NCBI GenBank assembly: GCA_039588935.1
Contig: JBDGYW010000001.1
Coordinates: 13,659 to 77,658, forward strand
Length of the DNA stretch: 64,000 nt
Source of the DNA: Gemmatimonadota bacterium
Lineage (GTDB): Bacteria > Gemmatimonadota > Gemmatimonadetes > Gemmatimonadales > GWC2-71-9
Direction of reading: 5' to 3'
Made by a program: the position numbers and the translations under genes. The number at the start of each line of letters is the position of its first letter. Within the stretch, counting starts at the first letter, position 1. This document shows, piece by piece, positions 1 to 30,114 of this stretch. Below the pieces are notes generated by a model that saw only the letters and a program-made list of their open reading frames with translations, searched no databases and was not told the origin of the DNA.

Positions 1-527
1 GCAAACCAGTCCAGATGCTCACGGAAGGGGGCAACCGTCCATTCGATCTGGCGACCGCTTTTGCCGCGGTAATTGAGAAGTCCCGTCCGCACACCCTCGC
101 GCACCGCCCGCTTCGTGAGCCGACAGACGTCGCCAACCCGGAAGCCACGCATGCAGATCATCATGAGCGCTGCTGCTTCTGCTTCCTTGAAGGGAAGTTC
201 GTCGACGGCTGCGATCACGCCGTCCCACTCATCGAGGGTCAGCGGGCGCTTCTCGTGTATCCGCTCCGGTGGCGGGAGCTTCAGGTCATCGAGCGTCTCG
301 AGCAGCGAGGTGTCTTTCGTGTACTTGGCCCAGGCCCGGAGTGCCGCAAGATTCGTGCGCTTGGTCTTTGGCGCGAGCCCGTCGCGGACGAGGCGGCCGG
401 TGAGGCCGCGCCGGTCGGCGAGGCAGTGCGCGACATTGTGTGCGTAGAGTTCCGCCGTCCCCTCCGTTCGGCCGCGGCCGATGAGCCAATCTGAAAACCG
501 CTGGATCTGCGCTTGTTTGGAGGGCAT
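1..527 (-). CDS. int: Tyrosine recombinase / phage integrase, N-terminal ~175 aa (3' end runs off the window)
   Basis: Absent from the ORF track because it has no stop in the window. ATG at 527-525. My translation is MPSKQAQIQRFSDWLIGRGRTEGTAELYAHNVAHCL...LTLDEWDGVIAAV...ALMMICMRGFRVGDVCRL, which gives a SAM-like N-domain followed by the first catalytic Arg box of phage integrases. Confidence 0.8.
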   Translation of the reverse strand, partial: MPSKQAQIQRFSDWLIGRGRTEGTAELYAHNVAHCLADRRGLTGRLVRDGLAPKTKRTNLAALRAWAKYTKDTSLLETLDDLKLPPPERIHEKRPLTLDEWDGVIAAVDELPFKEAEAAALMMICMRGFRVGDVCRLTKRAVREGVRTGLLNYRGKSGRQIEWTVAPFREHLDWF

Positions 528-1052: not shown

Positions 1053-1126
1053 TTCGACTTAGCTCAGCCTGGTAGAGCTCCGAACTAACACTTCGGTGGT
1101 CGAGAGTTCAATTCTCTCAGTCAAAA
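1053..1126 (+). tRNA. tRNA, anticodon AAC (Val by the code)
   Basis: Hand-folded cloverleaf. Acceptor TTCGACT/AGTCAAA pairs at 6 of 7 positions (C3:A70 mismatch). D-arm GCTC-AGCCTGGTA-GAGC. Anticodon arm CCGAA-CTAACAC-TTCGG with U33 and A37. T-arm GAGAG-TTCAATT-CTCTC. 74 nt, CCA not encoded. Confidence 0.75.
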
Positions 1127-1155
1127 CCGCCCCCACCACTCGGCCGCGGTTTTTC
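1125..1155 (+). terminator. Weak terminator-like hairpin after the tRNA
   Basis: AACCGC (1125-1130) pairs with GCGGTT (1146-1151), followed by TTTT. Short stem that overlaps the tRNA 3' end. Confidence 0.3.
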
Positions 1156-1168
1156 TGTTAGGCTCCCC

Positions 1169-1390
1169 GTGATGCGACTGATCGACGCCAACACGGGTTA
1201 CGAGCCTAAAGCAGGCGAGACCTTCAAAAACGTCCTCGGCTACGTGACGATCCTGAAGGTGCGCGAGGGCATCTTCTCGGCCAAGGTGCTGGTCTCGATC
1301 AATGGCGATGACCCGCAGTGGTGGCCGCTCACCGTGCGCTACCTACACCCCGGCTTCCCGTTTCAGAAGGTCGGCTTCCTCAACAGCTAA
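1169..1390 (+). CDS. Hypothetical protein (73 aa)
   Basis: ORF track. GTG 1169 or ATG 1172 start. First ORF after the tRNA and convergent with 1387..2091(-). No domain recognised. Confidence 0.5.
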   Translation: MMRLIDANTGYEPKAGETFKNVLGYVTILKVREGIFSAKVLVSINGDDPQWWPLTVRYLHPGFPFQKVGFLNS

Positions 1391-2091
1391 AGCTCGACGA
1401 CCGCGGCGGAGCCGATGATCCGGTAGGGCCGCCCGCGTGCCTGGCAGAACCTCTTGAAGACATGGTGGGGCAAAGCGTTCTGATTCCACTCGTCCGGCCA
1501 ATCCCAGTCATCGCAGATGATGAGGCCGTGCTCGACCAGGTGGTTGGCGGCGAACTCGAGCTCCCACCTCATATTCGCCGCGCCGTGGTCGGAATCGTGA
1601 ATGAAGAGATCCCACGGCCCAGTTAGAGCCGCAAGTTCTGGGAGCACCTTCTTGCTCTCGCCGGCCAGGAAGGTGAATCGGTCAAAGCCATTGAAGCCCA
1701 GGGTGTCGCGGATGGCATCCATGGCCTGCTTCTGGCTGTAGTGCCTCGGGTCGCAGCTATACAGTGCGCCGTGTCCATTCCGATCGAGCGCGCGAAGGAC
1801 CAGGGACGCGCCCACACCGAAGCGCGTCCCTGTCTCGATGACCTTCTCGGGCCGGAGGATGCGGCAGATCGCATAGACGTAGTCCTGGTAGAGCAACGGC
1901 CCGTGGCTGTGCAGTCGCTTGTGGTCCGGGATCGCCTTGGCCTCGGCGAGAATCGGGCCCGGGTCGACATTGTGGCGGACGGCTAGGTCGCGAACGTAAT
2001 CCCAGTCACGCATCCGGCGAGAATAGCGCACCTTCGAGCGGTGAGGCCTGATGCAGATCGCGAGTCGGTTCGCAAGGAAAATCAGTTGCAT
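1387..2091 (-). CDS. Class I SAM-dependent methyltransferase (CmcI / O-MTase-like)
   Basis: ORF track 1387..2181 trimmed to ATG 2091 (ATG 2013 also possible) so the DnaA-box spacer stays non-coding. Motif I VIETGTRFGVGAS, then LFIHDSDHGAANMRWELE, as in Methyltransf_24/CmcI-type enzymes. Confidence 0.7.
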   Translation of the reverse strand: MQLIFLANRLAICIRPHRSKVRYSRRMRDWDYVRDLAVRHNVDPGPILAEAKAIPDHKRLHSHGPLLYQDYVYAICRILRPEKVIETGTRFGVGASLVLRALDRNGHGALYSCDPRHYSQKQAMDAIRDTLGFNGFDRFTFLAGESKKVLPELAALTGPWDLFIHDSDHGAANMRWELEFAANHLVEHGLIICDDWDWPDEWNQNALPHHVFKRFCQARGRPYRIIGSAAVVEL

Positions 2092-2126: not shown

Positions 2127-2146
2127 TTATCCACAGGTTATCCACA
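2127..2146 (+). promoter_or_regulatory. Two tandem perfect DnaA boxes TTATCCACA
   Basis: 2127-2135 and 2138-2146, 11 bp start to start. Flanked by GGAATTTTT repeats at 2110 and 2164, in the divergent MTase/XRE spacer. Confidence 0.6.
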
Positions 2147-2234
2147 CGGAATTTCGCGCACTTGGAATTTTTTCCCTCCACGTCGGCAGATAACTTGACC
2201 GGCCGTCACGAACCGTGTGAGATTACTATCCGTC

Positions 2235-2489
2235 ATGGAGGACGAGCCGTTGACCCAAGAGGAAGCTGCCCGCCTGCTCCGCGCTGAGCGGAAGCGAGCG
2301 AACCTCACACAGGACGAGATGGCGAAGGCCCTCGGCATCGGCCAGAGCCACTACAGCCTGCTGGAGCGCGGCAAGAGGCGCTACACCGTCGTCTACCTGA
2401 TGAGGGCGAAACGGAGACTTGGCGTCAGCTACGAATCTCTGCTGGGAGAGACCGAGGGGGACGAACAGAAATGCCACGCAGACGGGTAG
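2235..2489 (+). CDS. XRE / Cro-CI family helix-turn-helix regulator
   Basis: ORF track 2217..2489 with the start moved to ATG 2235 (MEDEPL). LTQDEMAKALGIGQSHYSLLERGKR is a canonical HTH_3 motif. Confidence 0.8.
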   Translation: MEDEPLTQEEAARLLRAERKRANLTQDEMAKALGIGQSHYSLLERGKRRYTVVYLMRAKRRLGVSYESLLGETEGDEQKCHADG

Positions 2490-3643
2490 CGGTCCGGCCG
2501 GACAAGCTGTCGCACACGAAGATCACGCCGCGGCTGATGGAGTGGGGCCCCTGGGAGATGATGTCTCCGACCGCGCGCTGTCTATGGATAGGGCTCTACG
2601 CTAGCCCAGAGGCGCGCAGCGTCGCTCCAGGCCTCTGGAGGGGCGGTGTCGCAGTGATGGCCGAGTCCTCGTGCCTGGGAGTCACGGACACACAGAACGC
2701 ACTGAGCGAGCTGAAGGAGCGAGGCGTCCTTCTCTTCGATCCGGCGACCCGCGTCGCCATCTTCACGAGGCTTCCGGACCGTGCAATGCGCCCCGCAAAC
2801 GGCCGCTGCATCGTCCGCTACTACAAGCGATGGGCGGAGCTGCCGGATTGCCTGTTGGTGGATGCCTGGATTCATCTGCTGCTCTGGCTCTGTCACCCCA
2901 TGACGGGGGACCATGAGAAGCACTGGGACAGCACTTTTGGGGACGCGACAGGTGTAATGTCCAGCACAATCCCGATTTTCCCAATTGAAGGCGTCATTAC
3001 GAACTCCGAAAAACCTGTTGTTCTGGCCAGCACAAATGGTCATGACGAAGCCTCCCGTGGAGAACCTGAGGACAAGGTAGCACAAACATCAATGTTTCAG
3101 CAAGGATCCGATACGGTATCCGAGACTGTTGAGGATACCCTACTTATTACTTATAGCTTGTCCGGAGTAAGAGAAGGGGGTGTGGGGGAAGAGAGGACCC
3201 GGGGGCCAGCCAACGGGGCGGACTTCCTGGAGGGGCGCAGGCGGAAACCGCGGCGAAAGCCAGAGCGCCCCTTCGCCATCAAGGACCTCTTCGCGGCGCT
3301 GCGCGAGACCTCGGCCGGGCGGGTCGCAACGACGCCATGGGACGTGAGGATGGCGAAGCCCCTATGGGACGTCATCGAGGCTTGTGGCCAAGCTGAAGTA
3401 ACACTTGAGGACGTGCGGCTGGCCGGCGACTGGCTCGCGGCCGGCGGTCTCGGCTATCGCGATGACCTCGGCATCCCCTGGATCGCGAAGACTGGCGAGC
3501 TCCTCAACGCCGTCGCGAAGGCGCGGCTCTGGGGTGAGGCCGGCCGCGGAAAAGTTGAGAGTCACAAGAAGGGTTCTGGGCGAGGGGTGACGGCCCGCGA
3601 TCTTGCGGACCGAGCCGCCTCACTCGAGGCTGACGGACAGTAG
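2471..3643 (+). CDS. Hypothetical 390-aa protein; possible replication initiator/organiser (inference only)
   Basis: ORF track. GAGGGGGA RBS. Overlaps the XRE gene end. Winged-helix-like segment NALSELKERGVLLFDPATRVAIF. Sits next to the DnaA boxes. Confidence 0.65.
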   Translation: MPRRRVAVRPDKLSHTKITPRLMEWGPWEMMSPTARCLWIGLYASPEARSVAPGLWRGGVAVMAESSCLGVTDTQNALSELKERGVLLFDPATRVAIFTRLPDRAMRPANGRCIVRYYKRWAELPDCLLVDAWIHLLLWLCHPMTGDHEKHWDSTFGDATGVMSSTIPIFPIEGVITNSEKPVVLASTNGHDEASRGEPEDKVAQTSMFQQGSDTVSETVEDTLLITYSLSGVREGGVGEERTRGPANGADFLEGRRRKPRRKPERPFAIKDLFAALRETSAGRVATTPWDVRMAKPLWDVIEACGQAEVTLEDVRLAGDWLAAGGLGYRDDLGIPWIAKTGELLNAVAKARLWGEAGRGKVESHKKGSGRGVTARDLADRAASLEADGQ

Positions 3644-3657
3644 GAGGACGACGGGGC

Positions 3658-3825
3658 ATGATCTGGCACGATGGACCACGGTGTCCGCACTGCGGGCGAA
3701 GGTTTTGGACGGAGGCCGCGCTGTGGAAGCATTACGAGCGCGGATGTCGGAAGACACCAAAACAGAAGTGGGAGAAGCCGAAGGGCCCGCTGTCGCTCTA
3801 CCCTAACAATCGGCGATGTAGTTAG
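3658..3825 (+). CDS. Small zinc-finger protein (55 aa)
   Basis: Below the ORF-track size cutoff. TAGGAGGACGA cassette followed by ATG 3658. My translation is MIWHDGPRCPHCGRRFWTEAALWKHYERGCRK.... It fills the 3644-3834 gap. Confidence 0.55.
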   Translation: MIWHDGPRCPHCGRRFWTEAALWKHYERGCRKTPKQKWEKPKGPLSLYPNNRRCS

Positions 3826-3834
3826 GAGGACGAC

Positions 3835-4074
3835 ATGCGGGAACGAATAGGACGATCGGGATTGCGGCGCGCTGAGCTGGAGCAAGAGTGCGCGATGATT
3901 GGAAGCGCCCTTGGCGACGTACTCAAGGCAAGAACACCTGGCGCTGGGTTCGCGCTTCTTCTTTTCGACTTTGGCGAAAAAGGGAACATTGCCTACGTCT
4001 CGAATGCGAACCGCGAGGACATGATAGAGGCGCTGGGTGAGTTGTTGGGGAATCTGAAGGCGGAGACACGGTAG
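3835..4074 (+). CDS. Hypothetical protein (79 aa)
   Basis: ORF track. TTAGGAGGACGAC-ATG cassette. ORFan. Confidence 0.65.
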   Translation: MRERIGRSGLRRAELEQECAMIGSALGDVLKARTPGAGFALLLFDFGEKGNIAYVSNANREDMIEALGELLGNLKAETR

Positions 4075-4084
4075 GAGGAGGAGG

Positions 4085-4546
4085 ATGGAGGAAAAACCGA
4101 CCGATGCCGCGATCCTGAAAGAGCTTGCGATAAGGATTCGACAACGACTCGACGAGGTTGATGCGGCCGATCGTCGTGCCGAACGGGCGGAGGCCCAGCT
4201 CGAAGGATTCCATGACGCCCTCGCTGCTATTGCCCAGCACGGGCCACAGCCGAGATGCCAGTGTGGATGCAATGAGGTTGGCAACGAATGTGATGCGGAT
4301 TGTGCGGCCCAGATGGTCGGTTTTGCCATGACGGCACTCAGTAAAACTGACTGGAAGGGCGCCGCTGAGCGTCGTGACGAGTGGGAGCGCGGTATCATGG
4401 AACAGCTAAAGAAGCTGTTCGCAGAGGCCGGTGTGAAGATTCTCGTTGGCCCGCGAGCCCCACTTCAAAACCAGATGGAAGGCCGGCTTCAGAGCGAGGA
4501 CGTGAAGCTCTACTTCCGCCTTGAGTTTTCCAGGCGCGGATTCTAG
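4085..4546 (+). CDS. Hypothetical protein (153 aa)
   Basis: ORF track. TAGGAGGAGGAGG-ATG. Cys cluster CQCGCNEVGNECDADC. Confidence 0.7.
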   Translation: MEEKPTDAAILKELAIRIRQRLDEVDAADRRAERAEAQLEGFHDALAAIAQHGPQPRCQCGCNEVGNECDADCAAQMVGFAMTALSKTDWKGAAERRDEWERGIMEQLKKLFAEAGVKILVGPRAPLQNQMEGRLQSEDVKLYFRLEFSRRGF

Positions 4547-4559
4547 GAAGAAGGACGAG

Positions 4560-4889
4560 ATGAAAGAAAGACACACCTCACCGGAGCTGCTTCAGAGGCT
4601 AAACGCCGCGACAAGGGCTGCTGCAGACAAATTGGGCGACGACTGCGGTGCGGTCATCGTTGTCGGAGTAATGCGCGATCCGGACGGTGTCGCATTCCCA
4701 ATCAAGGATCTTTGGAACTCCGCCTTTACCGACGAGAACATCCGTGACATCTACCCGTTGGTTGGCGAGGTATTCAAGCGGTGGATTGCTGGGCAAGCGA
4801 AGGGTGAGCGTGGCGACGAATGCCCCGACTGCATCAATGCCATCAACAGCGGCGAATTGCTATGCAAGCGCCACCTGGATGAGTACTGA
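4560..4889 (+). CDS. Hypothetical protein (109 aa)
   Basis: ORF track 4521..4889 trimmed to ATG 4560 behind GAAGGACGAG. C-terminal CPDC...CKRH. Confidence 0.65.
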   Translation: MKERHTSPELLQRLNAATRAAADKLGDDCGAVIVVGVMRDPDGVAFPIKDLWNSAFTDENIRDIYPLVGEVFKRWIAGQAKGERGDECPDCINAINSGELLCKRHLDEY

Positions 4890-4890
4890 G

Positions 4891-4910
4891 AACAAACAGC
4901 TCTTTATCAT
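4891..4910 (+). promoter_or_regulatory. Early intercistronic motif copy AACAAACAGCTCTTTATCAT
   Basis: Starts right after stop TGA 4887-4889 and ends 1 nt before ATG 4912. Confidence 0.6.
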
Positions 4911-4911
4911 C

Positions 4912-5337
4912 ATGGCTACCAAGTACCCAACCCCATCACGGCAGCGACCAGACGTTTTCAACGTGTGCGTGAAATGCCTCTTCTCGATTCCGAGTACAGA
5001 ACCGATCGGCTTCGAGTTTCTATTTGGTGAGCACTGGGTTACCTGCCACGCCAGCGACAAGGACTGCTTAGACCGTCAGGATAAGTGCAGGGATCGCCAC
5101 AGGCGCGAGATAGCTCATCGCATGAAGTTTCTAGCCGGAGGTCACTTGGTGGTGATACGCGATCTGCTAGGCCACCACTTCGACACCTATGGGAACTACT
5201 ACCTGAAAGTCGAGGAGGGCGCGGACCCGCTTCAGCGAGCCGAACAGTTCATTCGCGCTCAGGATGAGACGTGGGGTTCTCTCGCGGGGAAGTGCGTTCT
5301 CATCGTCGAAGAGATCCTCTCGGACGGCGCTAGCTAA
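4912..5337 (+). CDS. Hypothetical protein (141 aa)
   Basis: ORF track 4687..5337 trimmed to ATG 4912, which directly follows the early motif. No SD. Confidence 0.6.
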   Translation: MATKYPTPSRQRPDVFNVCVKCLFSIPSTEPIGFEFLFGEHWVTCHASDKDCLDRQDKCRDRHRREIAHRMKFLAGGHLVVIRDLLGHHFDTYGNYYLKVEEGADPLQRAEQFIRAQDETWGSLAGKCVLIVEEILSDGAS

Positions 5338-5355
5338 ACCACAGTTTGTTATCAA
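5335..5355 (+). promoter_or_regulatory. Early intercistronic motif copy TAAACCACAGTTTGTTATCAA
   Basis: Begins with stop TAA 5335-5337. Followed by the GGAGGACGA RBS. Confidence 0.65.
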
Positions 5356-5368
5356 CGGAGGACGACAA

Positions 5369-5608
5369 ATGTCACAGCCAATGGATGAGCAAGAGGTGAG
5401 GCGCCGTCGTCAGCACGCCACCGCGGGCGCTCATATAGCTCAAGCTGTTGAGCATCTTGCGCGTGCCCAGGAAGCAGTGGCGGATCTTTGGGCCGGGGGC
5501 CATGCGATTAGCAGCTACTACCTCGACCAGCTCAGCCGCGCGGCGAACGCGCACCTACAGATTGCGGCTCACGGAGACGAGTTAGGAGGACGAGATGGCC
5601 AAGATTGA
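5369..5608 (+). CDS. Hypothetical protein (79 aa)
   Basis: ORF track 5264..5608 trimmed to ATG 5369 behind GGAGGACGA (5357-5365). Confidence 0.65.
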   Translation: MSQPMDEQEVRRRRQHATAGAHIAQAVEHLARAQEAVADLWAGGHAISSYYLDQLSRAANAHLQIAAHGDELGGRDGQD

Positions 5609-5873
5609 CCCCATACCATTCGCGCAGCACCTCGTCGGATACGCCTGCGGCGTGATGCGCGCAATCACCGAGGCGCTCGAGAGTGCCCAGACCAACGAGG
5701 CATACAGCTGCGAGCAGTTCGAGAAGGCTCGCGATTTCATCGATGAGTTTCTCGTGCAGCACAAGACGGAGAACTCCTCAGGGGAGCCCGTGGGGTACGG
5801 TCCGCTTCGATGTGGCGAGTGCCTCGCATGTCGAAAGAATGAACCGTGCTTTGATCCGCCGACGGCTCTTTGA
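5595..5873 (+). CDS. Hypothetical protein (92 aa)
   Basis: ORF track. GGAGGACGA at 5585-5593. Overlaps the previous gene end. Confidence 0.7.
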   Translation: MAKIDPIPFAQHLVGYACGVMRAITEALESAQTNEAYSCEQFEKARDFIDEFLVQHKTENSSGEPVGYGPLRCGECLACRKNEPCFDPPTAL

Positions 5874-5874
5874 G

Positions 5875-5896
5875 AACAAACAACGCTTTATTATCA
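5875..5896 (+). promoter_or_regulatory. Early intercistronic motif copy AACAAACAACGCTTTATTATCA
   Basis: Follows stop TGA 5871-5873 and precedes GGAGGACGA 5898-5906. Confidence 0.65.
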
Positions 5897-5907
5897 CGGA
5901 GGACGAT

Positions 5908-6336
5908 GTGACGGACGTAGAGCGAGAATGGGCGAAAACGATCATCGACGGAGATAGGCTGGCGCTGTGGGCGCTAGATAGCTGCGATGAGTTCGACACC
6001 GACATGTTCGGCGACGAACTTGAATGGCTCAGGTTTCGCTTTGGGGAAACGTGGTACGTCTGGAATCCAGATGACGACTGGGACGGCGAGGGTGTCGCTG
6101 TGGCTATGCTGATGGTGAAGGCGGTCGAGAACTCTCGCGCCGCCGCCGAAGCCGAAATCGAACACCATGTCAGGAAGCGGGTTGAGTTAACGCAGGCGGT
6201 GCGTCCGGCGGTTGAGTGGATGGAATGGTGGCTAGATCAGCAGGAGTGCGAGTGCGAGGGCATCGGCCATAATTGCGGGCGGGATGGCCGCCAGCGCGAA
6301 TACCGGGTGGCACGCGCCGCGCTAGACGGACGCTGA
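5908..6336 (+). CDS. Hypothetical protein (142 aa)
   Basis: ORF track 5683..6336 trimmed to the in-frame GTG 5908 behind GGAGGACGA. Acidic, Trp-rich ORFan. Confidence 0.65.
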   Translation: MTDVEREWAKTIIDGDRLALWALDSCDEFDTDMFGDELEWLRFRFGETWYVWNPDDDWDGEGVAVAMLMVKAVENSRAAAEAEIEHHVRKRVELTQAVRPAVEWMEWWLDQQECECEGIGHNCGRDGRQREYRVARAALDGR

Positions 6337-6349
6337 GTAGGAGGACGAG

Positions 6350-6751
6350 GTGGCTGAATCGAGTGACGAGGTTGCTGAGTGTGCAGGCTGTGGTGGTGAA
6401 GTCCCCTTCATTGACGCAATCGCCGAGAACAACCAGCAGTGGTGTAGTTACATCTGCATCGCGCGCGACGTTTCCACGAAGGCGATCGAACGCGCAGCAG
6501 AGAAGCCAACCCGACTTCGCAAGGGTTGGAGGAGCACCGCGATCGCCTACATTGAGGTCGTCGCGGACGCGGAGACGATCGGTGCGTTCCGCGACTGGAT
6601 GCGAGCGGAGAAGATAACGTTCTACCACAGCTGCTCGCCTTACAACCCCCTGGCCCACAGTGGCTACTTCCGTGAAGCGGAAGCGAAGCGCATCGAGGCG
6701 TGGCTGGGTGCCCACGTCGAGCAGACGTGGCCGCAAGCCGGCCGCGTCTGA
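6350..6751 (+). CDS. Hypothetical protein (133 aa)
   Basis: ORF track. GTG behind GGAGGACGA 6340-6348. N-terminal CAGCGG...C zinc-ribbon-like. Confidence 0.7.
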   Translation: MAESSDEVAECAGCGGEVPFIDAIAENNQQWCSYICIARDVSTKAIERAAEKPTRLRKGWRSTAIAYIEVVADAETIGAFRDWMRAEKITFYHSCSPYNPLAHSGYFREAEAKRIEAWLGAHVEQTWPQAGRV

Positions 6752-6752
6752 G

Positions 6753-6775
6753 AATAAACGACGGGTTTGTTATCA
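6753..6775 (+). promoter_or_regulatory. Early intercistronic motif copy AATAAACGACGGGTTTGTTATCA
   Basis: Follows stop TGA 6749-6751. Together with the stop it forms the imperfect dyad TGAGAATAAAC / GTTTGTTATCA. Confidence 0.65.
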
Positions 6776-6819
6776 GAGGAGGACGGGATGAGTGAGGTCG
6801 ATGAACAGCGAGAGGGGGA

Positions 6820-7086
6820 TTGACGGTGCAGCAAAGAACCAGGTGCCGCGAAATCCTATCGACGCACGCCGGTGCTGTCGAGTGTCGCCGCAACCGCGAC
6901 ACCGGGACCGTAATTACCCTCTATCGAGCCAGTGAGGCGGGCTTGGACGATGATCCATGGACGCCGTGGGCGACCGTTTGTGAGGATCATGGATCTATCG
7001 TGCTTCACCGGACACGAGCGGATGGCCGTTCCGCGATCGCACACCCGGATTGGTGTCGCGAGTGTGCCGAGCTGTACGGGCGGTGA
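6820..7086 (+). CDS. Hypothetical protein (88 aa)
   Basis: ORF track. TTG start behind GAGAGGGGGA (GTG 6826 is an alternative). Start uncertain. Confidence 0.5.
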   Translation: MTVQQRTRCREILSTHAGAVECRRNRDTGTVITLYRASEAGLDDDPWTPWATVCEDHGSIVLHRTRADGRSAIAHPDWCRECAELYGR

Positions 7087-7087
7087 G

Positions 7088-7110
7088 AATAAACGACGGT
7101 TTGTTATCAA
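7088..7110 (+). promoter_or_regulatory. Early intercistronic motif copy AATAAACGACGGTTTGTTATCAA
   Basis: Follows stop TGA 7084-7086. Confidence 0.65.
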
Positions 7111-7128
7111 CGAAAGGAAGGGAAAGAC

Positions 7129-7368
7129 ATGATCTTTAGAGTCGAAAACAAGTGGAGCGGTGCGAGGCTCGTCGAGGCGCATGCCCTGGACGAAGCGATC
7201 TCGAAGGCACGCGACGCAGAGATCGGCGAGTTCAAAACCTCCTACGCGGAGAACGCGATCCCAGGCAAGAACCTCGAGCCGAAGGATCTAGAAGAGGCAC
7301 TGGTAGACTTTCGGCCCGATCTCGAACCATTTCGGGCAGAACTTGTCGCGCAGGAGGTGCTCCGCTAG
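7129..7368 (+). CDS. Hypothetical protein (79 aa)
   Basis: ORF track. GGAAGGGAAAG RBS-like. Codons 3-7 carry a 13-bp dyad copy. Confidence 0.65.
   Translation: MIFRVENKWSGARLVEAHALDEAISKARDAEIGEFKTSYAENAIPGKNLEPKDLEEALVDFRPDLEPFRAELVAQEVLR
7135..7147. repeat. 13-bp dyad copy TTTAGAGTCGAAA
   Basis: Within codons 3-7 of CDS 7129..7368. Confidence 0.55.
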
Positions 7369-7391
7369 CTAAACGACGGGCGTGTTATCAG
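7369..7391 (+). promoter_or_regulatory. Early intercistronic motif copy CTAAACGACGGGCGTGTTATCAG
   Basis: Follows stop TAG 7366-7368. Confidence 0.6.
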
Positions 7392-7401
7392 TGAGGGAGA
7401 C

Positions 7402-7659
7402 ATGCCAGAGACTAAATCCGACGCCACCCAGCCGCTAAAGGCGTGGGCAGTACAGCACGACTCGCACGGGATCTGCGTTGACACGCTCTGTTTTCTGCAG
7501 GAGGGCGACAAACCTGAAGGCGACCTCGCGTGGGTGCGCCTCCCCTGGTTGGATGAGCCGGAGGGCGACGAGAGTCGGTGTTTCGAATGCCGGAGCACCA
7601 ACCTAGAGTTTGAGGAACGGGTCACATGTCGCACATGCGGCAAGGTCAGCCCGTACTAG
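7402..7659 (+). CDS. Hypothetical protein (85 aa), C-terminal zinc ribbon
   Basis: ORF track. GAGGGAGA RBS. CFECRS...CRTCG. Confidence 0.65.
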   Translation: MPETKSDATQPLKAWAVQHDSHGICVDTLCFLQEGDKPEGDLAWVRLPWLDEPEGDESRCFECRSTNLEFEERVTCRTCGKVSPY

Positions 7660-7668
7660 GAGGATGAC

Positions 7669-7962
7669 ATGTACGGGAAAACGGTGAGGAAAAGGGTCCG
7701 CGCGGTACTGGAGGAGACAACTCGCGCGGAGGCTCACGTTGAGGTGGACGTGCCGGTCTATGTCTGCCAAGCCTGCGAAGAGCAGGCGGAGGCGGAGGTT
7801 ACCTCGATGCGACGCCAGGCCGCAGACGAACAGCTCTACGTGAGCGGATGGAAAAAACCGGAGGGGTGGATTGACACGGTGGTGTCGGACGATAAGTCAC
7901 TTTGCCTCTGTGGGGGCTGTCTCTCGATTGCGCTTGCAGCCGTGAGCCTGGAGCTGGAATAG
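7669..7962 (+). CDS. Hypothetical protein (97 aa)
   Basis: ORF track. TAGGAGGATGAC-ATG. CQAC...CLCGGC. Confidence 0.65.
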   Translation: MYGKTVRKRVRAVLEETTRAEAHVEVDVPVYVCQACEEQAEAEVTSMRRQAADEQLYVSGWKKPEGWIDTVVSDDKSLCLCGGCLSIALAAVSLELE

Positions 7963-7971
7963 GAGAACTGG

Positions 7972-8478
7972 ATGAGCACCAAAGAACACCCATACCGGAA
8001 GATCGCCAGACAGGGGGTGAAGTACCGAGATGGTGAGGGGTGGATCGACTCGGGAAGTGGGAGGCTTCTCTGCCCGGGCAACTCTCGGCTTGTGACTCTC
8101 AATCTGAAACTTGGCGGTGTTGTCAACCACTGCGTGCCTATGCGAGATCTGCTCCACATCTTCCAGATATACGCCCTGCCTCCGCCCGGGTGGGAACCAC
8201 CACCGGCTCCCCCAGTCGACGCCTGCGAGGGTGAGATTGCGATTCAATCCGACGCGACAAACACGATCGTCTTTAGCCGATCCGTTCGCGGGCTTGTCGA
8301 CGATTATTGGTCGCGTCTCACGCGCGATGAAGTCCCAATCACGCTTCTACGCCCGCTTAGCTTTTGGCCAAGTGACTCGATCCGCCTCATCGGCCTCGGA
8401 GCACGCGACGGCACTGAGGTGGAACTGCACGGTTGCTTTGACCCCATCCCACCGCGCACAGGCGTGGGCTGGAGCTAA
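7972..8478 (+). CDS. Hypothetical protein (168 aa)
   Basis: ORF track. TAGGAGAACTGG-ATG. ORFan. Confidence 0.7.
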   Translation: MSTKEHPYRKIARQGVKYRDGEGWIDSGSGRLLCPGNSRLVTLNLKLGGVVNHCVPMRDLLHIFQIYALPPPGWEPPPAPPVDACEGEIAIQSDATNTIVFSRSVRGLVDDYWSRLTRDEVPITLLRPLSFWPSDSIRLIGLGARDGTEVELHGCFDPIPPRTGVGWS

Positions 8479-8500
8479 CTAAATACGAGTTTGTTATCAA
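8479..8500 (+). promoter_or_regulatory. Early intercistronic motif copy CTAAATACGAGTTTGTTATCAA
   Basis: Follows stop TAA 8476-8478. Part of the 225-bp duplicated segment. Confidence 0.65.
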
Positions 8501-8506
8501 CGGGGG

Positions 8507-8519
8507 TTGAGACTCTAAA
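8507..8519. promoter_or_regulatory. 13-bp dyad copy TTGAGACTCTAAA
   Basis: Intergenic. Fused to the AAAGGAGG RBS of 8530. Confidence 0.65.
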
Positions 8520-8529
8520 GGAGGTTGGC

Positions 8530-8742
8530 GTGAACGGAGCAATGGAACTGTTTTTCCGCGAGCTGGTAGACGAGTATGGCTCGGAGGGGGTGGCTCGCGT
8601 CCTACTCGAGCGTCTCTACAAAAATTGCCAGGAACAGTGGCCACTCAATACGACGTGGGCCGCCAGTGACGAGGGGATAATGACTCATGTTCGTGGGTGG
8701 CTACGCGAAGCAGCGCAGCGACGAACAGGGGCGGCCGGATGA
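8530..8742 (+). CDS. Hypothetical protein (70 aa), short paralog of the N-terminus of 11284..11880
   Basis: ORF track 8491..8742 trimmed to GTG 8530 behind GGAGG. NGAMELFFRELV...QEQWPLN..WAASDEGIMTHVRGWL is shared with 11284. Confidence 0.7.
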   Translation: MNGAMELFFRELVDEYGSEGVARVLLERLYKNCQEQWPLNTTWAASDEGIMTHVRGWLREAAQRRTGAAG

Positions 8743-8918
8743 CGGCACGCAAGACATTCCGCGGCGAGAAGCGGGCGACGAAGGCCGAACTTAAGAAGGA
8801 AGCACGGGAGATCGCGAAGTTCGTCGAGATGTTGTTGCAATTCTCGCACGAAGGCCGCTTCCGTATTCTCCGCGCGCTGTCGGCCTACTTTCGCAACTAC
8901 AACGGAGACGTGAAATAG
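8739..8918 (+). CDS. Hypothetical basic protein (59 aa)
   Basis: ORF track 8697..8918 trimmed to ATG 8739 (ATGA overlap with the previous stop). Confidence 0.55.
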   Translation: MTARKTFRGEKRATKAELKKEAREIAKFVEMLLQFSHEGRFRILRALSAYFRNYNGDVK

Positions 8919-8927
8919 GAGGACGAC

Positions 8928-9527
8928 GTGAGTTACGAACACTGCGAGAAACACGACGAGGATGCGACCAACGGCTGCATGGCGTGTGAGAAGGAGCGGG
9001 TTGCAGCGCTGACGGACGCTGATGTCATCAGCGAACTCTCCGCCATGGCCAGTGGCAACTATCGCCGGACGCCAGAGGAACCGATGTTTGTCCGCGCCAA
9101 CGAAATTCGGAAGCGCTTGAGCAAGGGGCTTGAGGAAAGCGTGGGTGAGTCGTGCGTCGAGTCGCTACGAAGAATGGCGAAGCAGGCGCGCGACAACCTC
9201 ACCGACAGGGAGCGCGAGATCCTCGACAAGCACTTTACACCTCCGCGTCGAGCGGACTCCACGGCCGCATTGCGCACGGAATTAGGGGAGGGGAAGTACA
9301 CCAGGTGGATGGCGCGGCTTTCGGACGGCGAACTCGTCGGCTTGCTATGGTTGGTCGGGGAGTACGCGGCGAGATCCGACTCCCAGGAGCACGACATCGC
9401 AAAGTTTGATCACCCAGGGGACCGCCGGAAGTATGGCGCGTTGAATGGCATCGCTGCCTTCAAGCGCAAGCCGATGAGCCTCGATCTGGTTCGTCTCTTC
9501 ATGCGCAACTGCGTGAATGGAGAGTAG
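8928..9527 (+). CDS. Hypothetical protein (199 aa)
   Basis: ORF track. GTG behind GGAGGACGA 8918-8926. Confidence 0.7.
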   Translation: MSYEHCEKHDEDATNGCMACEKERVAALTDADVISELSAMASGNYRRTPEEPMFVRANEIRKRLSKGLEESVGESCVESLRRMAKQARDNLTDREREILDKHFTPPRRADSTAALRTELGEGKYTRWMARLSDGELVGLLWLVGEYAARSDSQEHDIAKFDHPGDRRKYGALNGIAAFKRKPMSLDLVRLFMRNCVNGE

Positions 9528-9536
9528 AAGGACGTC

Positions 9537-9647
9537 ATGGAAAATGTCTATATCGCGATAGTCGTCGGCACGACCACGCTCCTGGGCGCGCTCATCGGCG
9601 TTCTCGGCGGGCACTTAGCCTCGCGGCGTCGGGACCGTGGAGACTGA
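9537..9647 (+). CDS. Small single-pass membrane peptide (36 aa)
   Basis: Below the ORF-track cutoff. ATG 9537 lies 10 nt after the previous stop. MENVYIAIVVGTTTLLGALIGVLGGHLASRRRDRGD gives a TM helix plus a basic tail. Confidence 0.4.
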   Translation: MENVYIAIVVGTTTLLGALIGVLGGHLASRRRDRGD

Positions 9648-9651
9648 GAGC

Positions 9652-9671
9652 AAAACATGAAGTTATCTTCA
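9652..9671 (+). promoter_or_regulatory. Degenerate early motif copy AAAACATGAAGTTATCTTCA
   Basis: AAAAC-N5-GTTATC upstream of the GGAGG RBS of 9683. Weaker match than the others. Confidence 0.35.
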
Positions 9672-9682
9672 CGGAGGTCACG

Positions 9683-9913
9683 ATGAAGATCCGCATAGTC
9701 AAGCCATCGCAGCGACTGCTCGACTACATCGGGTCGCTTGTGTCGCTCGAGGAACGGCGAACAATCACCGACGATGAACTGCTCAGGCGAGACCGCGCGT
9801 CCGACGACCTGTGGAACGACCTCTCGGACGAGGAACAGGAAGAGGTTCGATCTGGAACGGTGTCCGAAGCGGAAGCCGAGGGTCTCCTGGCCGCACTGAA
9901 GCGTCGACCTTGA
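9683..9913 (+). CDS. Hypothetical acidic protein (76 aa)
   Basis: ORF track. ACGGAGGTCACG-ATG. Confidence 0.65.
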   Translation: MKIRIVKPSQRLLDYIGSLVSLEERRTITDDELLRRDRASDDLWNDLSDEEQEEVRSGTVSEAEAEGLLAALKRRP

Positions 9914-9914
9914 G

Positions 9915-9937
9915 ACTAAACACCAATTTATTATCAG
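9915..9937 (+). promoter_or_regulatory. Early intercistronic motif copy ACTAAACACCAATTTATTATCAG
   Basis: Follows stop TGA 9911-9913. Confidence 0.6.
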
Positions 9938-9946
9938 GAGGCCGAG

Positions 9947-10411
9947 GTGAAGGAGATCATGAAAAAATCAACGCCACTGACGGTCTACGACTGGGTGGCC
10001 TGTGTCGCTCGAATCGTGCCTGAGGCAACCTTTTCAGCCGGGACTCGCATCAGGGACAATAAGCACCGCGTTGTCGTCGAAACTCCATGGATGAACCTGG
10101 AGTGCGTAGTAGAGGAGGATAAGGCGGAGGCTGTTCGCGATCACTTATACACGAAGCGCCCATGTATCGCATGTGAAGGAAAGGGATATGTGGGAACCGC
10201 ACGGGCTCGATGTGCGCACTGCAATGGGGCAGATCTTGAGAGTCGCAATCGCGAGAGCGAGTGCGGCGATGAGCCGGAGTTCGCGATTTGCAGTCAATGC
10301 GGGCTCGCCATCGTGCTTGCAGCCAAGGAGAGCGGGCGACTGGTCAAACACGAGGACCCGTGTTCGCGAAAGCCCTGCCTGGGCATGGCCTCAACGGGTT
10401 CGCCGAAGTAG
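9947..10411 (+). CDS. Cys-rich protein (154 aa) with DnaJ-type CxxCxGxG-like fingers
   Basis: ORF track. GTG 9947 (ATG 9959 is an alternative). CIACEGKGYV, CAHCNG, CSQCG. Confidence 0.65.
   Translation: MKEIMKKSTPLTVYDWVACVARIVPEATFSAGTRIRDNKHRVVVETPWMNLECVVEEDKAEAVRDHLYTKRPCIACEGKGYVGTARARCAHCNGADLESRNRESECGDEPEFAICSQCGLAIVLAAKESGRLVKHEDPCSRKPCLGMASTGSPK
10236..10248. repeat. 13-bp dyad copy TTGAGAGTCGCAA
   Basis: Inside CDS 9947..10411, read as cTT GAG AGT CGC AAt (LESRN). Confidence 0.7.
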
Positions 10412-10423
10412 GAGGACGACGGC

Positions 10424-10609
10424 ATGGACTGTTTGCTAACTTTGGACGAGTTTGTGGAGGAATTCGTCAGGGAAATGACTCGTGACGCAGATGCTTTCAA
10501 GTTGCACACAGAGGGACAGACGATGGCGCCAGGACGGATGTGCGTCGACGAATGGCATCGCCTGTATGTCGCCTTCCTGGACCAGCGTGGCGACGGTGTG
10601 CGCAACTAG
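10424..10609 (+). CDS. Hypothetical protein (61 aa)
   Basis: ORF track. GGAGGACGA at 10411-10419. Confidence 0.6.
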   Translation: MDCLLTLDEFVEEFVREMTRDADAFKLHTEGQTMAPGRMCVDEWHRLYVAFLDQRGDGVRN

Positions 10610-10618
10610 GAGGACAAC

Positions 10619-11236
10619 ATGGCACAACTAGACCAGGCATGGCCGGAGCCGAAGGAACGCCCAATTTTGTTCAGCGGACCGATGGTGCTGGCGATCCTTG
10701 CGGGCAAGAAGACGCAAACGCGGCGGGTGATTAAACCGTCGTGGTCACGATGTCTCGACTTGGACGATCCGGACGACCGCGAGAAAGCGCGGCTGGGTTG
10801 TCCACACGGCACATCTCGGGATCGGTTGTGGGTCCGTGAGACATTCTACTGCGACGACTACCGCTACCCGAACGCTCCACCAGGAGAACTCTTACAGCTG
10901 ATGGAGTATCGAGCTGACCATGATTGTCGGACGTGGGAGGCGGGTTGTCCATGCTGCGATGAGGAGGGGCGCGCGTCTTGGAGGCCGTCTATTCATATGC
11001 CCCGATGGGCCTCGCGGATCACACTTGAAGTGATCGCTGTGAGGGTTGAGCGAGTGCAGTCGATCAGCGAGCAAGGCGTGCTCGCCGAGGGCATCGAGCC
11101 CGCGATCGTTGCCGGTGCGGCCTGGCACTGGCGACCGTTCCAGCACCTCTGGGACTCGATAAACGCCAAGCGCGGATACCCGTGGGCGGAAAACCCGTGG
11201 GTCTGGGTCGTCGAATTCAAGGTCCAGCGAAACTAA
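10619..11236 (+). CDS. ASCH/PUA-like domain protein (205 aa)
   Basis: ORF track. TAGGAGGACAAC-ATG. The N-terminus PILFSGPMVLAILAGKKTQTRRV is typical of ASCH-type phage proteins. Confidence 0.65.
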   Translation: MAQLDQAWPEPKERPILFSGPMVLAILAGKKTQTRRVIKPSWSRCLDLDDPDDREKARLGCPHGTSRDRLWVRETFYCDDYRYPNAPPGELLQLMEYRADHDCRTWEAGCPCCDEEGRASWRPSIHMPRWASRITLEVIAVRVERVQSISEQGVLAEGIEPAIVAGAAWHWRPFQHLWDSINAKRGYPWAENPWVWVVEFKVQRN

Positions 11237-11254
11237 ACCACGGTTTGTTATCAG
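11233..11254 (+). promoter_or_regulatory. Early intercistronic motif copy CTAAACCACGGTTTGTTATCAG
   Basis: Overlaps stop TAA 11234-11236. Part of the 225-bp duplicated segment. Confidence 0.65.
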
Positions 11255-11260
11255 TTGGGA

Positions 11261-11273
11261 TTGAGACTCTAAA
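11261..11273. promoter_or_regulatory. 13-bp dyad copy TTGAGACTCTAAA
   Basis: Intergenic. Fused to the GGAGGACGA RBS (11274-11282) of 11284. Confidence 0.65.
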
Positions 11274-11283
11274 GGAGGACGAG

Positions 11284-11880
11284 ATGAATGGAGCAATGGA
11301 ACTATTTTTTCGCGAGCTAGTAGGCGAGTACGGCCCGGAGAGGGTAGCCCGTGTTTTACTCGAGCGCCTTTACAGGAATTGCCAGGAACAGTGGCCGCTC
11401 AATGCAACCTGGGCCGCCAGCGACGAGGGAATAATGACCCACGTTCGTGGCTGGCTATCCGAGGGCGACAGACCTGAGCGAGTGGGATGCCCCGGAGCCA
11501 CCCACGGGCAGAACAGAGGTGCGGACTGCGACGCGGGCAGCGGACCCGCACCTCAGCCGCCCGTCATCTTGTTCCATCCTGCAGGCAAGAAGCTGGTCAT
11601 CGACCACTCGACGCACCCAATCACGCTCCTCGGTGAGGATGCGTTGGGTGGCGAAGTCCAGCCAATCGTCAACATGCGGCCAATCAACAAGTATGGCCGC
11701 GTCGTCGAATCGCACATTGTTCTCATTCCGAACGCATCGTCGCTGCAGCTCTCATGGCACCCGGCTTACGTGTGGCCGGGAAACACGGTGTACATACCAA
11801 GTGACGGCATGGACATGGTGACCGTGGTGATGGATCGAGACGGGCGCATGCTTTCGACTGTCACGCGCGACTTTCAATAG
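11284..11880 (+). CDS. Hypothetical protein (198 aa), long paralog of 8530..8742
   Basis: ORF track 11182..11880 trimmed to ATG 11284 behind GGAGGACGA. The first ~58 aa are shared with 8530, followed by a unique C-terminal ~140 aa. Confidence 0.75.
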   Translation: MNGAMELFFRELVGEYGPERVARVLLERLYRNCQEQWPLNATWAASDEGIMTHVRGWLSEGDRPERVGCPGATHGQNRGADCDAGSGPAPQPPVILFHPAGKKLVIDHSTHPITLLGEDALGGEVQPIVNMRPINKYGRVVESHIVLIPNASSLQLSWHPAYVWPGNTVYIPSDGMDMVTVVMDRDGRMLSTVTRDFQ

Positions 11881-29932: not shown

Positions 29933-30085
29933 CGGGTTCTCCTTTAGATGGGTGCGCTCGCGCGCGGTGATGGGCTTCTCTCCCGGGGTTTTCGGCCGGT
30001 TTTATGCCGGCGCACGCCAATTTTGGCTCGAAACCCCCATTGAAACACGACGTAAGTACTTGAAATCATTAGGTTATGCGTGGGG

Positions 30086-30114
30086 TTTGATAACAAACTA
30101 CTATTTATTATCAA
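30086..30114. promoter_or_regulatory. Palindromic double copy of the early motif TTTGATAACAAAC-TACTA-TTTATTATCAA
   Basis: 11-bp arms match at 10 of 11 positions. It reads as an early motif on both strands, overlaps the stop codon of 30101..30427, and heads the only sizeable spacer inside the leftward array. Confidence 0.7.

Follow-up and report, generated by a model that had tools for sequence, protein, structure and literature searches.

The DNA analysed here, a stretch of 64,000 nucleotides assigned to a Gemmatimonadota bacterium (contig JBDGYW010000001.1, positions 13,659 to 77,658; hereafter the window), has a GC content of 62% and forms part of a phage genome of about 80 kb for which soil metagenomes are the only source. 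The 390-residue protein encoded at 2471-3643 is identical on contigs of up to 80.6 kb and has relatives on contigs of 78.6 and 79.2 kb; one contig (L122) is 100% identical to the window, and two others (L123 and L150) are 99% identical. No similarity at the DNA level to any GenBank phage was found, and the window genes gave nearly no matches in Pfam, PHROGs and NCBIfam. Rightward of an XRE gene runs a long array of small genes, and the gaps between some of these genes are occupied by copies of a junction element, 26-27 bp in length and AT-rich (21-52% GC) within this GC-rich genome. This element, its distribution and its probable role are the subject of the present study.

The conserved right half of the element, TTTRTTATCA, has nine exact matches in the window (5345, 5887, 6766, 7100, 8490, 9927, 11244 and 30104 on the plus strand and 30088 on the minus strand), compared with an expectation of 0.04 (100 shuffles, maximum 1), and allowing one or two mismatches added copies at 4903 (TTTATCATCA) and 7381 (CGTGTTATCA). 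Subsequently, a sequence-only profile was built from ten aligned copies and run unfiltered over the whole window. It recovered exactly ten loci with E values from 9e-8 to 4e-4, nine of them on the plus strand within 6.4 kb and the tenth on the minus strand at 30.1 kb, and all of its other matches (E >= 0.07) were reverse-strand echoes of the same sites. A repeat finder recovered the same element families independently. No further copy was found elsewhere in the window or in the 7.5 kb upstream of it (on L122), and none is present in 2100-2250, around the conserved early promoter.

Each copy is composed of an 11-nt left arm, four or five variable bases and the right arm GTTTRTTATCA. The left arm occurs in two types, TGAGAAYAAAC (type A) and GCTARCTAAAY / CGAAACTAAAC (type B), and the type-A arm is an imperfect inverted GTTTRTTATCA, with the identical G/A mismatch in five copies and in a decayed junction at 9645. 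Columns T22, T24, A26, T27, C28 and A29 of the right arm are invariant in the ten-copy alignment, as is the AAA(C) upstream of it, and the gap between AAAC and TTTR is five bases in eight copies and six in two. At all ten loci the stop codon of the upstream gene falls inside the left arm or the spacer, 3-14 nt from the right arm, and all ten scored copies are co-oriented with transcription. The distance from the end of the element to the next start codon ranges from 0 to 30 nt (155 nt at 30.1 kb), with a Shine-Dalgarno (SD) sequence 0-4 nt behind the element in six of the ten copies.

These observations bear out much of the original prediction, which had described from a first reading of the DNA a nearly invariant right half, a left half including or abutting the upstream stop codon, an imperfect 11-bp dyad with a recurring G/A mismatch, and an absence from the fibre module, the right module and most of the leftward array. 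Several of its details require correction. The element was said to occupy every non-overlapping junction, but of the 17 such junctions at 4889-11284 only ten carry it, one of them (9647/9683) in decayed form; the remaining seven are element-free junctions of 9-13 nt in which the stop codon lies within the SD sequence (TAGGAGGACGAnnATG), while junctions longer than about 22 nt all carry the element. The spacing between the halves is N5, and twice N6, rather than N4-7. The degenerate copy proposed at 9652 is not scored by the profile and holds a different 14-bp palindrome (TGAAGTTATCTTCA), and the fragment proposed at 743-751 (GGTTATCATC at 742-751) amounts to a 7-mer match of the kind that chance alone produces. 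The copy at 30.1 kb, regarded as an exceptional double copy, does exist, but on the minus strand it has the ordinary layout and is co-oriented like the others. Lastly, the ATG at 4912, at which the element was thought to replace the SD sequence, is plausible by codon-position base composition, although the public gene caller chose 4837.

Table 1. Copies of the junction element, candidate reader genes and other features of the window (positions in nucleotides; copies are written as left arm, spacer and right arm)
Feature	Position	Strand	Sequence	Context	Profile E
Integrase gene	3-527	-		Left end of window	
tRNA-Val(AAC)	1053-1128			Between integrase and small open reading frame	
Methyltransferase gene	1387-2091	-			
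Three repeats	2110-2120, 2148-2158, 2164-2175		GGAATTT(T/C)	Flanking the DnaA boxes	
Two perfect DnaA boxes	2127-2135, 2138-2146		TTATCCACA	Between methyltransferase and XRE genes, just upstream of early promoter	
Early promoter, sigma-70-like	2195-2223	+	TTGACC-17-TGAGAT	Conserved in relatives	
XRE gene	2250-2489			Followed by long rightward array of small genes	
Accessory block	3658-11880	+		About 25 small orphan genes, all early copies inside; delimited by tblastn against L121	
Copy 1	4887-4912	+	TGAGAACAAAC-AGCT-CTTTATCATCA	First 3 nt are stop TGA of gene 4560-4889; last A is the A of ATG 4912; no SD	9e-5
Copy 2 (type B)	5329-5354	+	GCTAGCTAAAC-CACA-GTTTGTTATCA	Stop TAA 5335-5337; SD 2 nt behind; ATG 5369	3e-6
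Copy 3 (type A)	5871-5896	+	TGAGAACAAAC-AACG-CTTTATTATCA	Stop TGA 5871-5873; SD 1 nt behind; GTG 5908	3e-6
Copy 4 (type A, N6)	6749-6775	+	TGAGAATAAAC-GACGG-GTTTGTTATCA	Stop TGA 6749-6751; sole early copy with significant RNA fold	5e-7
Copy 5 (type A)	7084-7109	+	TGAGAATAAAC-GACG-GTTTGTTATCA	Stop TGA 7084-7086; ATG 7129	9e-8
Copy 6 (type B, N6, weakest)	7364-7390	+	GCTAGCTAAAC-GACGG-GCGTGTTATCA	Stop TAG 7366-7368; ATG 7402	4e-4
Copy 7 (type B)	8474-8499	+	GCTAACTAAAT-ACGA-GTTTGTTATCA	Stop TAA 8476-8478; conserved leader TTGAGACTCTAAAGGAGG behind; GTG 8530	3e-5
Decayed or doubtful copy	9645-9671	+	TGAGAGCAAAAC, then palindrome TGAAGTTATCTTCA	Junction 9647/9683	Unscored
Copy 8 (type A)	9911-9936	+	TGAGACTAAAC-ACCA-ATTTATTATCA	Stop TGA 9911-9913; SD immediately behind	3e-6
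Copy 9 (type B)	11228-11253	+	CGAAACTAAAC-CACG-GTTTGTTATCA	Stop TAA 11234-11236; leader as in copy 7; ATG 11284, last gene of accessory block	7e-7
Copy 10 (most symmetric)	30088-30113	-	TGATAATAAAT-AGTA-GTTTGTTATCA	Left arm codes final residues VDNK and stop of gene 30427->30101; 155 nt upstream of gene 29932->29552	1e-5
Second candidate reader, 108 residues	30101-30427	-		Weak XRE/MqsA-type helix-turn-helix signature (E 0.006, sub-threshold)	
Candidate reader, 137 residues	30431-30844	-		C-terminal winged helix (IclR/ArsR-like); adjoins copy 10	

The surroundings of individual copies show several further features. The open reading frames taken to start at 4912 and to span 6820-7086 differ from the public gene calls and are favoured by codon-position composition and by the look of their translations. 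Directly behind copy 4, a mini-reading frame of 11 codons with a strong SD sequence (6789-6824) reaches across the TTG/GTG start of the following gene (6820/6826) and is a possible leader peptide or coupling device. The leader shared by copies 7 and 9 (8506-8523 and 11260-11277) resembles the left arm (cf. TTGAGACTAAAC of copy 9911) fused to an SD sequence. At 9645-9671, the left-arm-like TGAGAGCAAAAC is followed by a perfect 5-4-5 palindrome, TGAAG-TTAT-CTTCA, which may be the remains of a copy or else a site of another type. At copy 10 the upstream gene ends in GTT GAT AAT AAA TAG, followed by TAG TTTGTTATCA (minus strand). Outside the scored set, a weak look-alike (CTAAAGCAATATTTATCCTCAG, 526-557 on the minus strand, profile E 2.9) lies directly against the integrase ATG, which lacks an SD sequence, and the relative L121 has TTTGTTCTCG (7281-7320) about 12 nt before its integrase start.

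The element is a lineage-specific feature of a lineage-specific orphan block, with one additional copy heading the last leftward module. The copies split 4.9-11.9 kb into ten groups of one to four translationally coupled genes, whose internal joins are overlaps or stop-in-SD junctions. In L121, the closest relative with available DNA (about 55% protein identity), tblastn detected homologues of the genes at 2250 and 2471 and of every tested gene from 11890 on, but none for the approximately 25 genes at 3658-11880. The early region of L121 is about 8.6 kb shorter, and its junctions are of the same TAGGAGGACGA type as in the window phage. The relatives L121, L124-126 and L145-149 contained no copy of the element. 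Among 5.8 billion proteins, homologues of one block protein and of the helix-turn-helix (HTH)-like protein beside copy 10 were found in the same phage only, and exact-protein look-ups returned the same contig only. The type-A pattern had no match in viral contigs, while in metagenomes it gave 17 AT-rich chance matches and one GC-rich, single-copy match (L129, discussed below). Looser scans of viral contigs (AAAC-N5/6-TTTGTTATCA and TAAAC-N5/6-TTTGTTATCA) gave single chance matches in AT-rich DNA, and four AT-rich loci with three to five TTTRTTATCA each (L088, L102, L115 and L005) shared no flanks and lacked the AAAC partner, and were set aside as chance or coding low-complexity matches.

The copies appear, from their sequences, to be related by descent and to travel with gene cassettes. 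The type-B left arms (GCTAGCTAAAC twice and GCTAACTAAAT) have kept their sequence despite being read in three different frames at the ends of the upstream genes, and spacers are common across arm types: GACGG(G) occurs in 6749, 7084 and 7364, and CACRG in 5329 and 11228. In addition, a duplication of 232 nt (8477-8708 and 11231-11462, 82% identical; 80% identity over 71 residues between the duplicated genes) begins exactly at the element. Within the duplicated pair AACTAAA (7/7) and GTTTGTTATCA (11/11) are unchanged, whereas divergence has affected the spacer and the first 3 nt past the element. Thus, selection appears to have acted on the arms.

Whether the conserved feature is a pairing or a string of bases was examined next, because an RNA hairpin acting in processing or stability had been proposed. 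The in-register pairing of the aligned arms (70.9% of paired cells) exceeds that in slid registers (34-56%), and the consensus is therefore a genuine dyad; it is nevertheless no better than pairing with shuffled partners (72.5%). None of the 11 pairs has changed on both sides. In copy 7364, GTTT has become GCGT with AAAC unchanged, so that the change is uncompensated, and the distal TTATCA is fixed despite the partners TGAGAA, GCTAGC, GCTAAC or CGAAAC. More generally, ten contiguous right-arm positions and AAAC are conserved while their pairing partners vary. As the partners vary without compensatory change, it is the bases and not the pairs that are conserved, and a hairpin is disfavoured. 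Folding of the junction RNAs agrees with this: only two of the 11 beat shuffled sequences (6749, z -3.4; 30.1 kb, z -3.3), the rest giving z values from -1.7 to +1.2, mostly with non-dyad folds or no fold, and no Rfam match was obtained even at E <= 1.

Among the roles originally suggested for the element, that of an operator is best supported, by inference from its base-specific conservation, near-fixed spacing and dyad tendency. We therefore propose, tentatively and at somewhat short of an even chance, that the element serves, in its multiple copies, as an operator-like DNA site to which a phage HTH or winged-HTH protein binds, gating transcription into each cassette. The site would be a repeated cis-regulatory sequence with an imperfect 11-4/5-11 dyad and an indispensable core, AAAC-N5-TTTRTTATCA, recognised sequence-specifically by a phage-encoded DNA-binding protein. 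One copy heads each of ten orphan-gene mini-operons, plus one leftward module at 30.1 kb. Occupancy might then gate RNA polymerase either as a roadblock to the long early transcript, which would begin at about 2.2 kb, or by closing weak promoter-like stretches within the elements, so that the accessory block and the genes behind it would be silenced or timed together, with the copies carried along as cassettes spread. That the element exists, where its copies lie and how they are oriented, which of its bases are conserved and in what evolutionary setting it occurs are all shown by the sequences; binding by a protein, the identity of that protein and the effect on transcription are what we infer from them.

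The likeliest readers of the element would be encoded beside its most symmetric copy, which adjoins two genes of DNA-binding type. The 137-residue protein matches Pfam HTH_IclR (5e-9) and HTH_20 (3e-6) and the ArsR-family structure 2kko in the PDB (4.6e-4), and it also matches NCBIfam ArsR/SmtB (8.9e-5), below the cut-off of that model. ArsR/SmtB regulators classically bind imperfect 12-2-12 repeats, which have the same overall length as the element. The 108-residue HTH-like protein, whose stop codon lies inside copy 10, is known from this phage lineage only, as is the motif. A further indication comes from the metagenomic match in L129, an unrelated contig (3923-3949 of Ga0247786_1000284, 71% GC), where a near-identical palindrome (TTGAGAACAAACAATCTTTGTTATCAA, i.e., TTGAGAACAAAC-AATC-TTTGTTATCAA) occupies the gap that separates a MarR-family gene from a divergently oriented tautomerase-family gene. 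MarR operators typically have this position, and the palindrome is presumably one of them. The match was imposed by the search pattern, and its chance expectation is about 0.006 or less, a rough figure that assumes about 10^12 bp of high-GC DNA in the collection. All that it indicates is that the site of a winged-helix dimer can look like the element; the MarR protein of L129 has no significant similarity to the phage winged-helix protein (E 0.23).

Several observations weigh against an operator of this kind. The element is missing from 2100-2230, where the GGAATTT repeats and the DnaA boxes lie, unlike the stoperators considered below; its absence from the early promoter makes it an improbable target of the immunity repressor. 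Four type-B copies are poor palindromes, and the spacing is shifted by 1 bp in two copies. The fixed relation of the element is to the upstream stop codon (3-14 nt) and not to the next start (0-155 nt), a relation for which an operator has no need. Its strict co-orientation and its proximity to SD sequences would suit a role at the RNA level equally well. The winged-helix gene is located upstream of copy 10, while classical autoregulation would have it downstream. Finally, the searched collections yielded only one lineage with the motif, so that motif and protein could not be seen to co-vary.

An unlikely alternative is that each element is an autonomous early promoter for the host RNA polymerase, driving its own mini-operon without a binding protein specific to it, much like the promoter-early stem-loops (PeSLs) of T4-type phages (Arbiol et al. 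2010, PMC2839356; Comeau et al. 2014, PMC4122927). The -35-like box would be (T/C/G)TGAGA, followed by a 16-17-nt spacer with a small dyad and by TGnTATCAn as an extended -10. The architecture agrees with that of PeSLs, from the stop codon in an AT-rich stretch through -35, stem-loop between the boxes, -10 and SD sequence to the start codon, and PeSLs occupy hyperplastic regions before ORFans (PMC2839356), just as each copy here heads coupled genes. When scored with a sigma-70 matrix, the 30.1-kb copy, the best match of all copies (TTGATA-16-TGtTATCAA), reached 10.8 bits, close to the 11.1 bits of the conserved early promoter (which the matrix aligns as TTGACC-18-tgtGAGATT); type-A copies reached 5.6-8.6 bits (the top 0.05-0.24% of positions), and the copies without the TG (5871 and 9911) have the best -35 (TTGAGA). 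However, four of the ten copies, the type-B copies 5329, 7364, 8474 and 11228, do not resemble promoters (-1.8 to 2.5 bits) and yet retain the core, the -10-like hexamer TATCAN lacks the near-universal final T, and the best-conserved bases (AAAC and TTT) fall in what should be a non-conserved spacer. Thus, a host promoter may explain some copies, such as that at 30.1 kb, but not the common core. A start about 7 nt past the hexamer would, moreover, land inside or after the SD sequence in five or six copies, and unregulated promoters leading into the lytic genes of an integrase-bearing phage would still need a repressor. A consensus scan for sigma-70 promoters and terminators found none at any copy, with counts equal to those of shuffles; no GC-rich stem with a T run is present at the copies, and their hairpins are weak.

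No RNA polymerase (giant, T7-like or other phage type) and no sigma factor is detectable among the window genes; together with the four copies lacking host-promoter likeness, this indicates that a pure promoter does not explain the common core. It is nonetheless probable, judging from the matrix scores, that some copies overlap weak promoters and that the 30.1-kb copy overlaps a good one. Other assignments were tried and rejected. Reading TRTTAT as the -10, as the TGnnAT of the early promoter might suggest, leaves neither a -35 nor a TG element. The element shares only TTATC with the DnaA box TTATCCACA, with A where the box needs C. By-eye comparison with the aligned copies found that none of the following fits all of them: IHF (WATCAANNNNTTR), sigma-54 (GG-N10-GC), sigma-28, ECF-type -35/-10 spacing, the Bacteroidetes TAnnTTTG/TTTG promoter, lambda boxA/nut, the RNase E consensus and the hairpin promoters of the N4 virion polymerase. 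In the literature, the element sequence as such matched primers and unrelated items only. Facing copy 10, a sigma-70-like sequence (TTGAAA-18-AATCAT with an upstream TG; 30040-30069, plus strand) scores 13.4 bits, the second best on that strand; any rightward transcript starting there would run antisense to the HTH genes and carry UGAUAACAAAC, complementary to the right arm of the early junctions.

It is distinctly unlikely, though equally compatible with the orientation of the copies, that the transcribed UUURUUAUCA (with AAAC) acts as a linear element in the mRNA upstream of the SD sequence. It could then be the site of a translational repressor or another RNA-binding protein, an AU-rich ribosome standby or enhancer, or a nuclease entry site where stop-in-SD coupling is broken. 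The first of these would recall T4 RegA or the RNA-binding mode of Aca2. A role in the mRNA would account for the co-orientation of all ten scored copies with transcription, for the proximity of the SD sequence in six of them, for the ATG at 4912 that abuts the element without an SD sequence (as the integrase ATG abuts the weak look-alike), and for the location of the element exactly where junctions lack translational coupling. The similarly laid-out ESAS repeats of Cluster K have also been tentatively tied to translation (PMC3203893). On the other hand, the distance to the SD sequence or start is variable (0-30 nt, and 155 nt at 30.1 kb), a single-stranded site needs no mirroring by a left arm, and a general AU-rich enhancer would not require ten invariant bases. 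No RNA-binding protein family was detected in the window, and the same palindrome in the MarR promoter of L129 favours recognition as DNA.

The same copies could be boundaries at which gene cassettes recombine, as had been suggested, and we consider it highly unlikely that this is their primary role. The elements would be core-type sites in direct orientation (10-bp arms, 6-7-bp centre) at which site-specific or short-homology exchange inserts, deletes and shuffles promoterless orphan cassettes, with regulation being secondary. The location of the early copies in a block without counterpart in the closest relative, their mosaic composition from two left-arm types and common spacers, and the duplication that starts at an element all speak for this, as may the end of the variant contig L123 about 90 nt past the first copy. 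The geometry and the unequal conservation of the arms also recall dif/pdif sites. However, no cassette differences or copy-bounded indels were seen among the variants compared, which are 99-100% identical to the window, and differing central regions would hinder exchange by a tyrosine recombinase. No integron-type integrase was detected in the window, whose recombination-type genes are one ordinary Phage_integrase and one HNH nuclease, and the purifying selection on the arms of the duplicated pair is equally expected of a regulatory site.

Sites of the attC type are 55-141 bp in length with RYYYAAC ... GTTRRRY cores and are used by the integrase IntI, and dif sites consist of 11-6-11 matching XerC/D arms. 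At 26-27 bp, the element is much shorter than attC, and its cores, YAAAC and GTTTR, do not fit RYYYAAC and GTTRRRY. There is a slight prospect that the ten co-oriented elements make 4.9-11.9 kb a phage cassette-capture array, akin in function to an integron, an array of pdif modules or PeSL mini-circles, in which promoterless orphan genes would be gained, lost and reshuffled at an element that also supplies their expression signals.

The two remaining alternatives are barely plausible. An RNA hairpin for processing or stability, like the RNase III sites of T7 early RNA or REP-type 3' hairpins, could draw on the two copies (6749 and 30113 on the minus strand) that form the 11-bp dyad better than shuffles and on a U-G wobble at arm position 7 (seven of ten copies) that RNA would tolerate, but besides the pairing and folding results above, its stems are too short and too AU-rich for RNase III or for protection against exonucleases. 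An element with no function of its own, whether a host REP-like repeat, a patch for a host AT-seeking silencer or a passenger of gene duplication, would suit the AT-richness and the descent of the copies, but the type-A metagenome scan found no multi-copy GC-rich contig and only one single-copy match, in a MarR promoter, the arms were kept while the spacer diverged in the duplicated pair, and ten invariant positions exceed what a composition-driven silencer needs.

Other features of the window concern the biology of the phage itself. The anticodon (AAC) of the tRNA-Val is unusual, its acceptor stem contains a C3-A70 mismatch, and it is possibly att-associated. A 24-mer from its T-arm had no exact match in 185,579 GTDB genomes, and a profile of the gene at 2471-3643 found no relative and no host among GTDB genomes. 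The relatives L121, L124 and L125 carry TTATCCACA, TTGTCCACA or AATTCACA boxes at the equivalent place upstream of their XRE genes, and the DnaA boxes suggest either an input of host DnaA to early transcription or a replication origin. The early promoter of the relatives reads TTGAC(A/G)-17/18-TGGAAT or TTGAAT, with a -10 of the form TGnnAT that is missing the usual A at the second position, and the GGAATTT(T/C) repeats are the likelier operators of an immunity switch. Two tandem paralogous genes of 460 codons (22136-23518 and 23576-24958) lie in DNA blocks that are 71-86% identical at a spacing of 1443 nt; they contain Gly-rich GGCGGYGGY repeats, a motif that partly recurs in 18814-20076, and they probably encode fibre or spike proteins. 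Compared with the window, L123 has 12 nt of the stop-in-SD junction motif duplicated in tandem (AGTAGGAGGACG) at the equivalent of 3639, as well as a deletion of 22 nt at 1616-1637.

Variable early blocks like this one hold most of the unknown phage genes, and their regulation and assembly are known for few model groups, namely the PeSLs of T4-like phages, the stoperators and SAS/ESAS repeats of mycobacteriophages and the early promoters of archaeal viruses. The element may define a co-regulated set of genes, possibly for host takeover or anti-defence, as in archaeal viruses (PMC11065993). It also offers a compact test case for junction repeats acting on DNA, on RNA or in recombination, and with its reader it would be a candidate orthogonal operator/regulator pair. 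A cassette-capture site, if true, would be a new route of gene acquisition in phages.

Compared with known systems, the layout of the element is closest to that of PeSLs. Both are repeated intergenic cassettes that extend from the upstream stop codon in an AT-rich stretch to the SD sequence or start of the next gene, with -35/-10-like boxes and a small dyad between or over them, and both are concentrated before ORFans in hyperplastic regions; here the block at 3658-11880 has no L121 homologues and the stop codon is inside the element in all copies. PeSL copies recombine, and the present copies are mosaic, with a duplication starting at one of them. However, PeSL boxes are of sigma-70 consensus and their GC-rich stem-loops are proven terminators, while here only some copies are promoter-like and the dyad is AU-rich, mostly unstable and without terminator signature, in a phage that is itself GC-rich and integrase-bearing.

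The L5-type stoperators of Cluster A mycobacteriophages (L5 gp71) are likewise oriented with transcription, lie in short intergenic gaps and are proposed to block elongating polymerase (PMC6550527, PMC9283540). They resemble the element in being many copies of a short site, oriented with transcription in short gaps of a GC-rich, integrase-bearing phage. Unlike the 26-27-bp imperfect dyad described here, a stoperator is an asymmetric site of 13 bp to which the immunity repressor binds as a monomer; 20-30 of them are spread genome-wide rather than being confined to a 6.4-kb block and one outlier, and they are identical to the operator of the early lytic promoter, while the element is missing from 2100-2250. 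The conserved inverted repeats (CIRs) of phiC31, reportedly described by Ingham et al. in 1994, are said to be many-copy repressor operators in the early intergenic regions of a GC-rich temperate phage; they reportedly measure 17 bp, accompany an early-promoter motif that is conserved in its own right, serve as binding sites of the immunity repressor and are unrelated to the element in sequence.

The SAS/ESAS repeats of Cluster K mycobacteriophages are junction repeats of unknown function (Pope et al. 2011, PMC3203893). As in the present phage, where the motif is TAGGAGGACGA, a phage-specific, SD-containing motif marks the junctions, all in one orientation, and about half of the sites have an imperfect inverted repeat just upstream with one arm better conserved. 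The ESAS repeats, however, have 17-bp arms and a variable spacer of 4-13 bp upstream of the 13-bp SAS (GGGATAGGAGCCC), compared with 11-bp arms, a 4-5-bp spacer and an unrelated sequence here, and they recur in different subclusters in association with certain gene families, while the element is lineage-specific and includes the upstream stop codon. In SIRV2, the early genes share one common regulatory sequence, probably bound by the winged-HTH protein Aca8 (PMC11065993), and the inverted repeats of acr promoters are bound by Aca proteins (PMC6765145). The likeness lies in a near-identical sequence before many small, unrelated, early accessory genes and in a viral HTH or winged-HTH protein as the presumed repressor; those sequences, by contrast, have been shown to act as strong promoters and have defined TATA/BRE or sigma-70 boxes.

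Taken together, the element departs from PeSLs, stoperators and ESAS repeats in the features that define each of them; it is of their general kind and not a member of any. While its layout is nearest to that of PeSLs, its regulatory logic would, by analogy, be that of the stoperators, the phiC31 CIRs and the SIRV2 early sequence, and it most likely represents a new form of a known phage feature, the repeated protein-binding control site.

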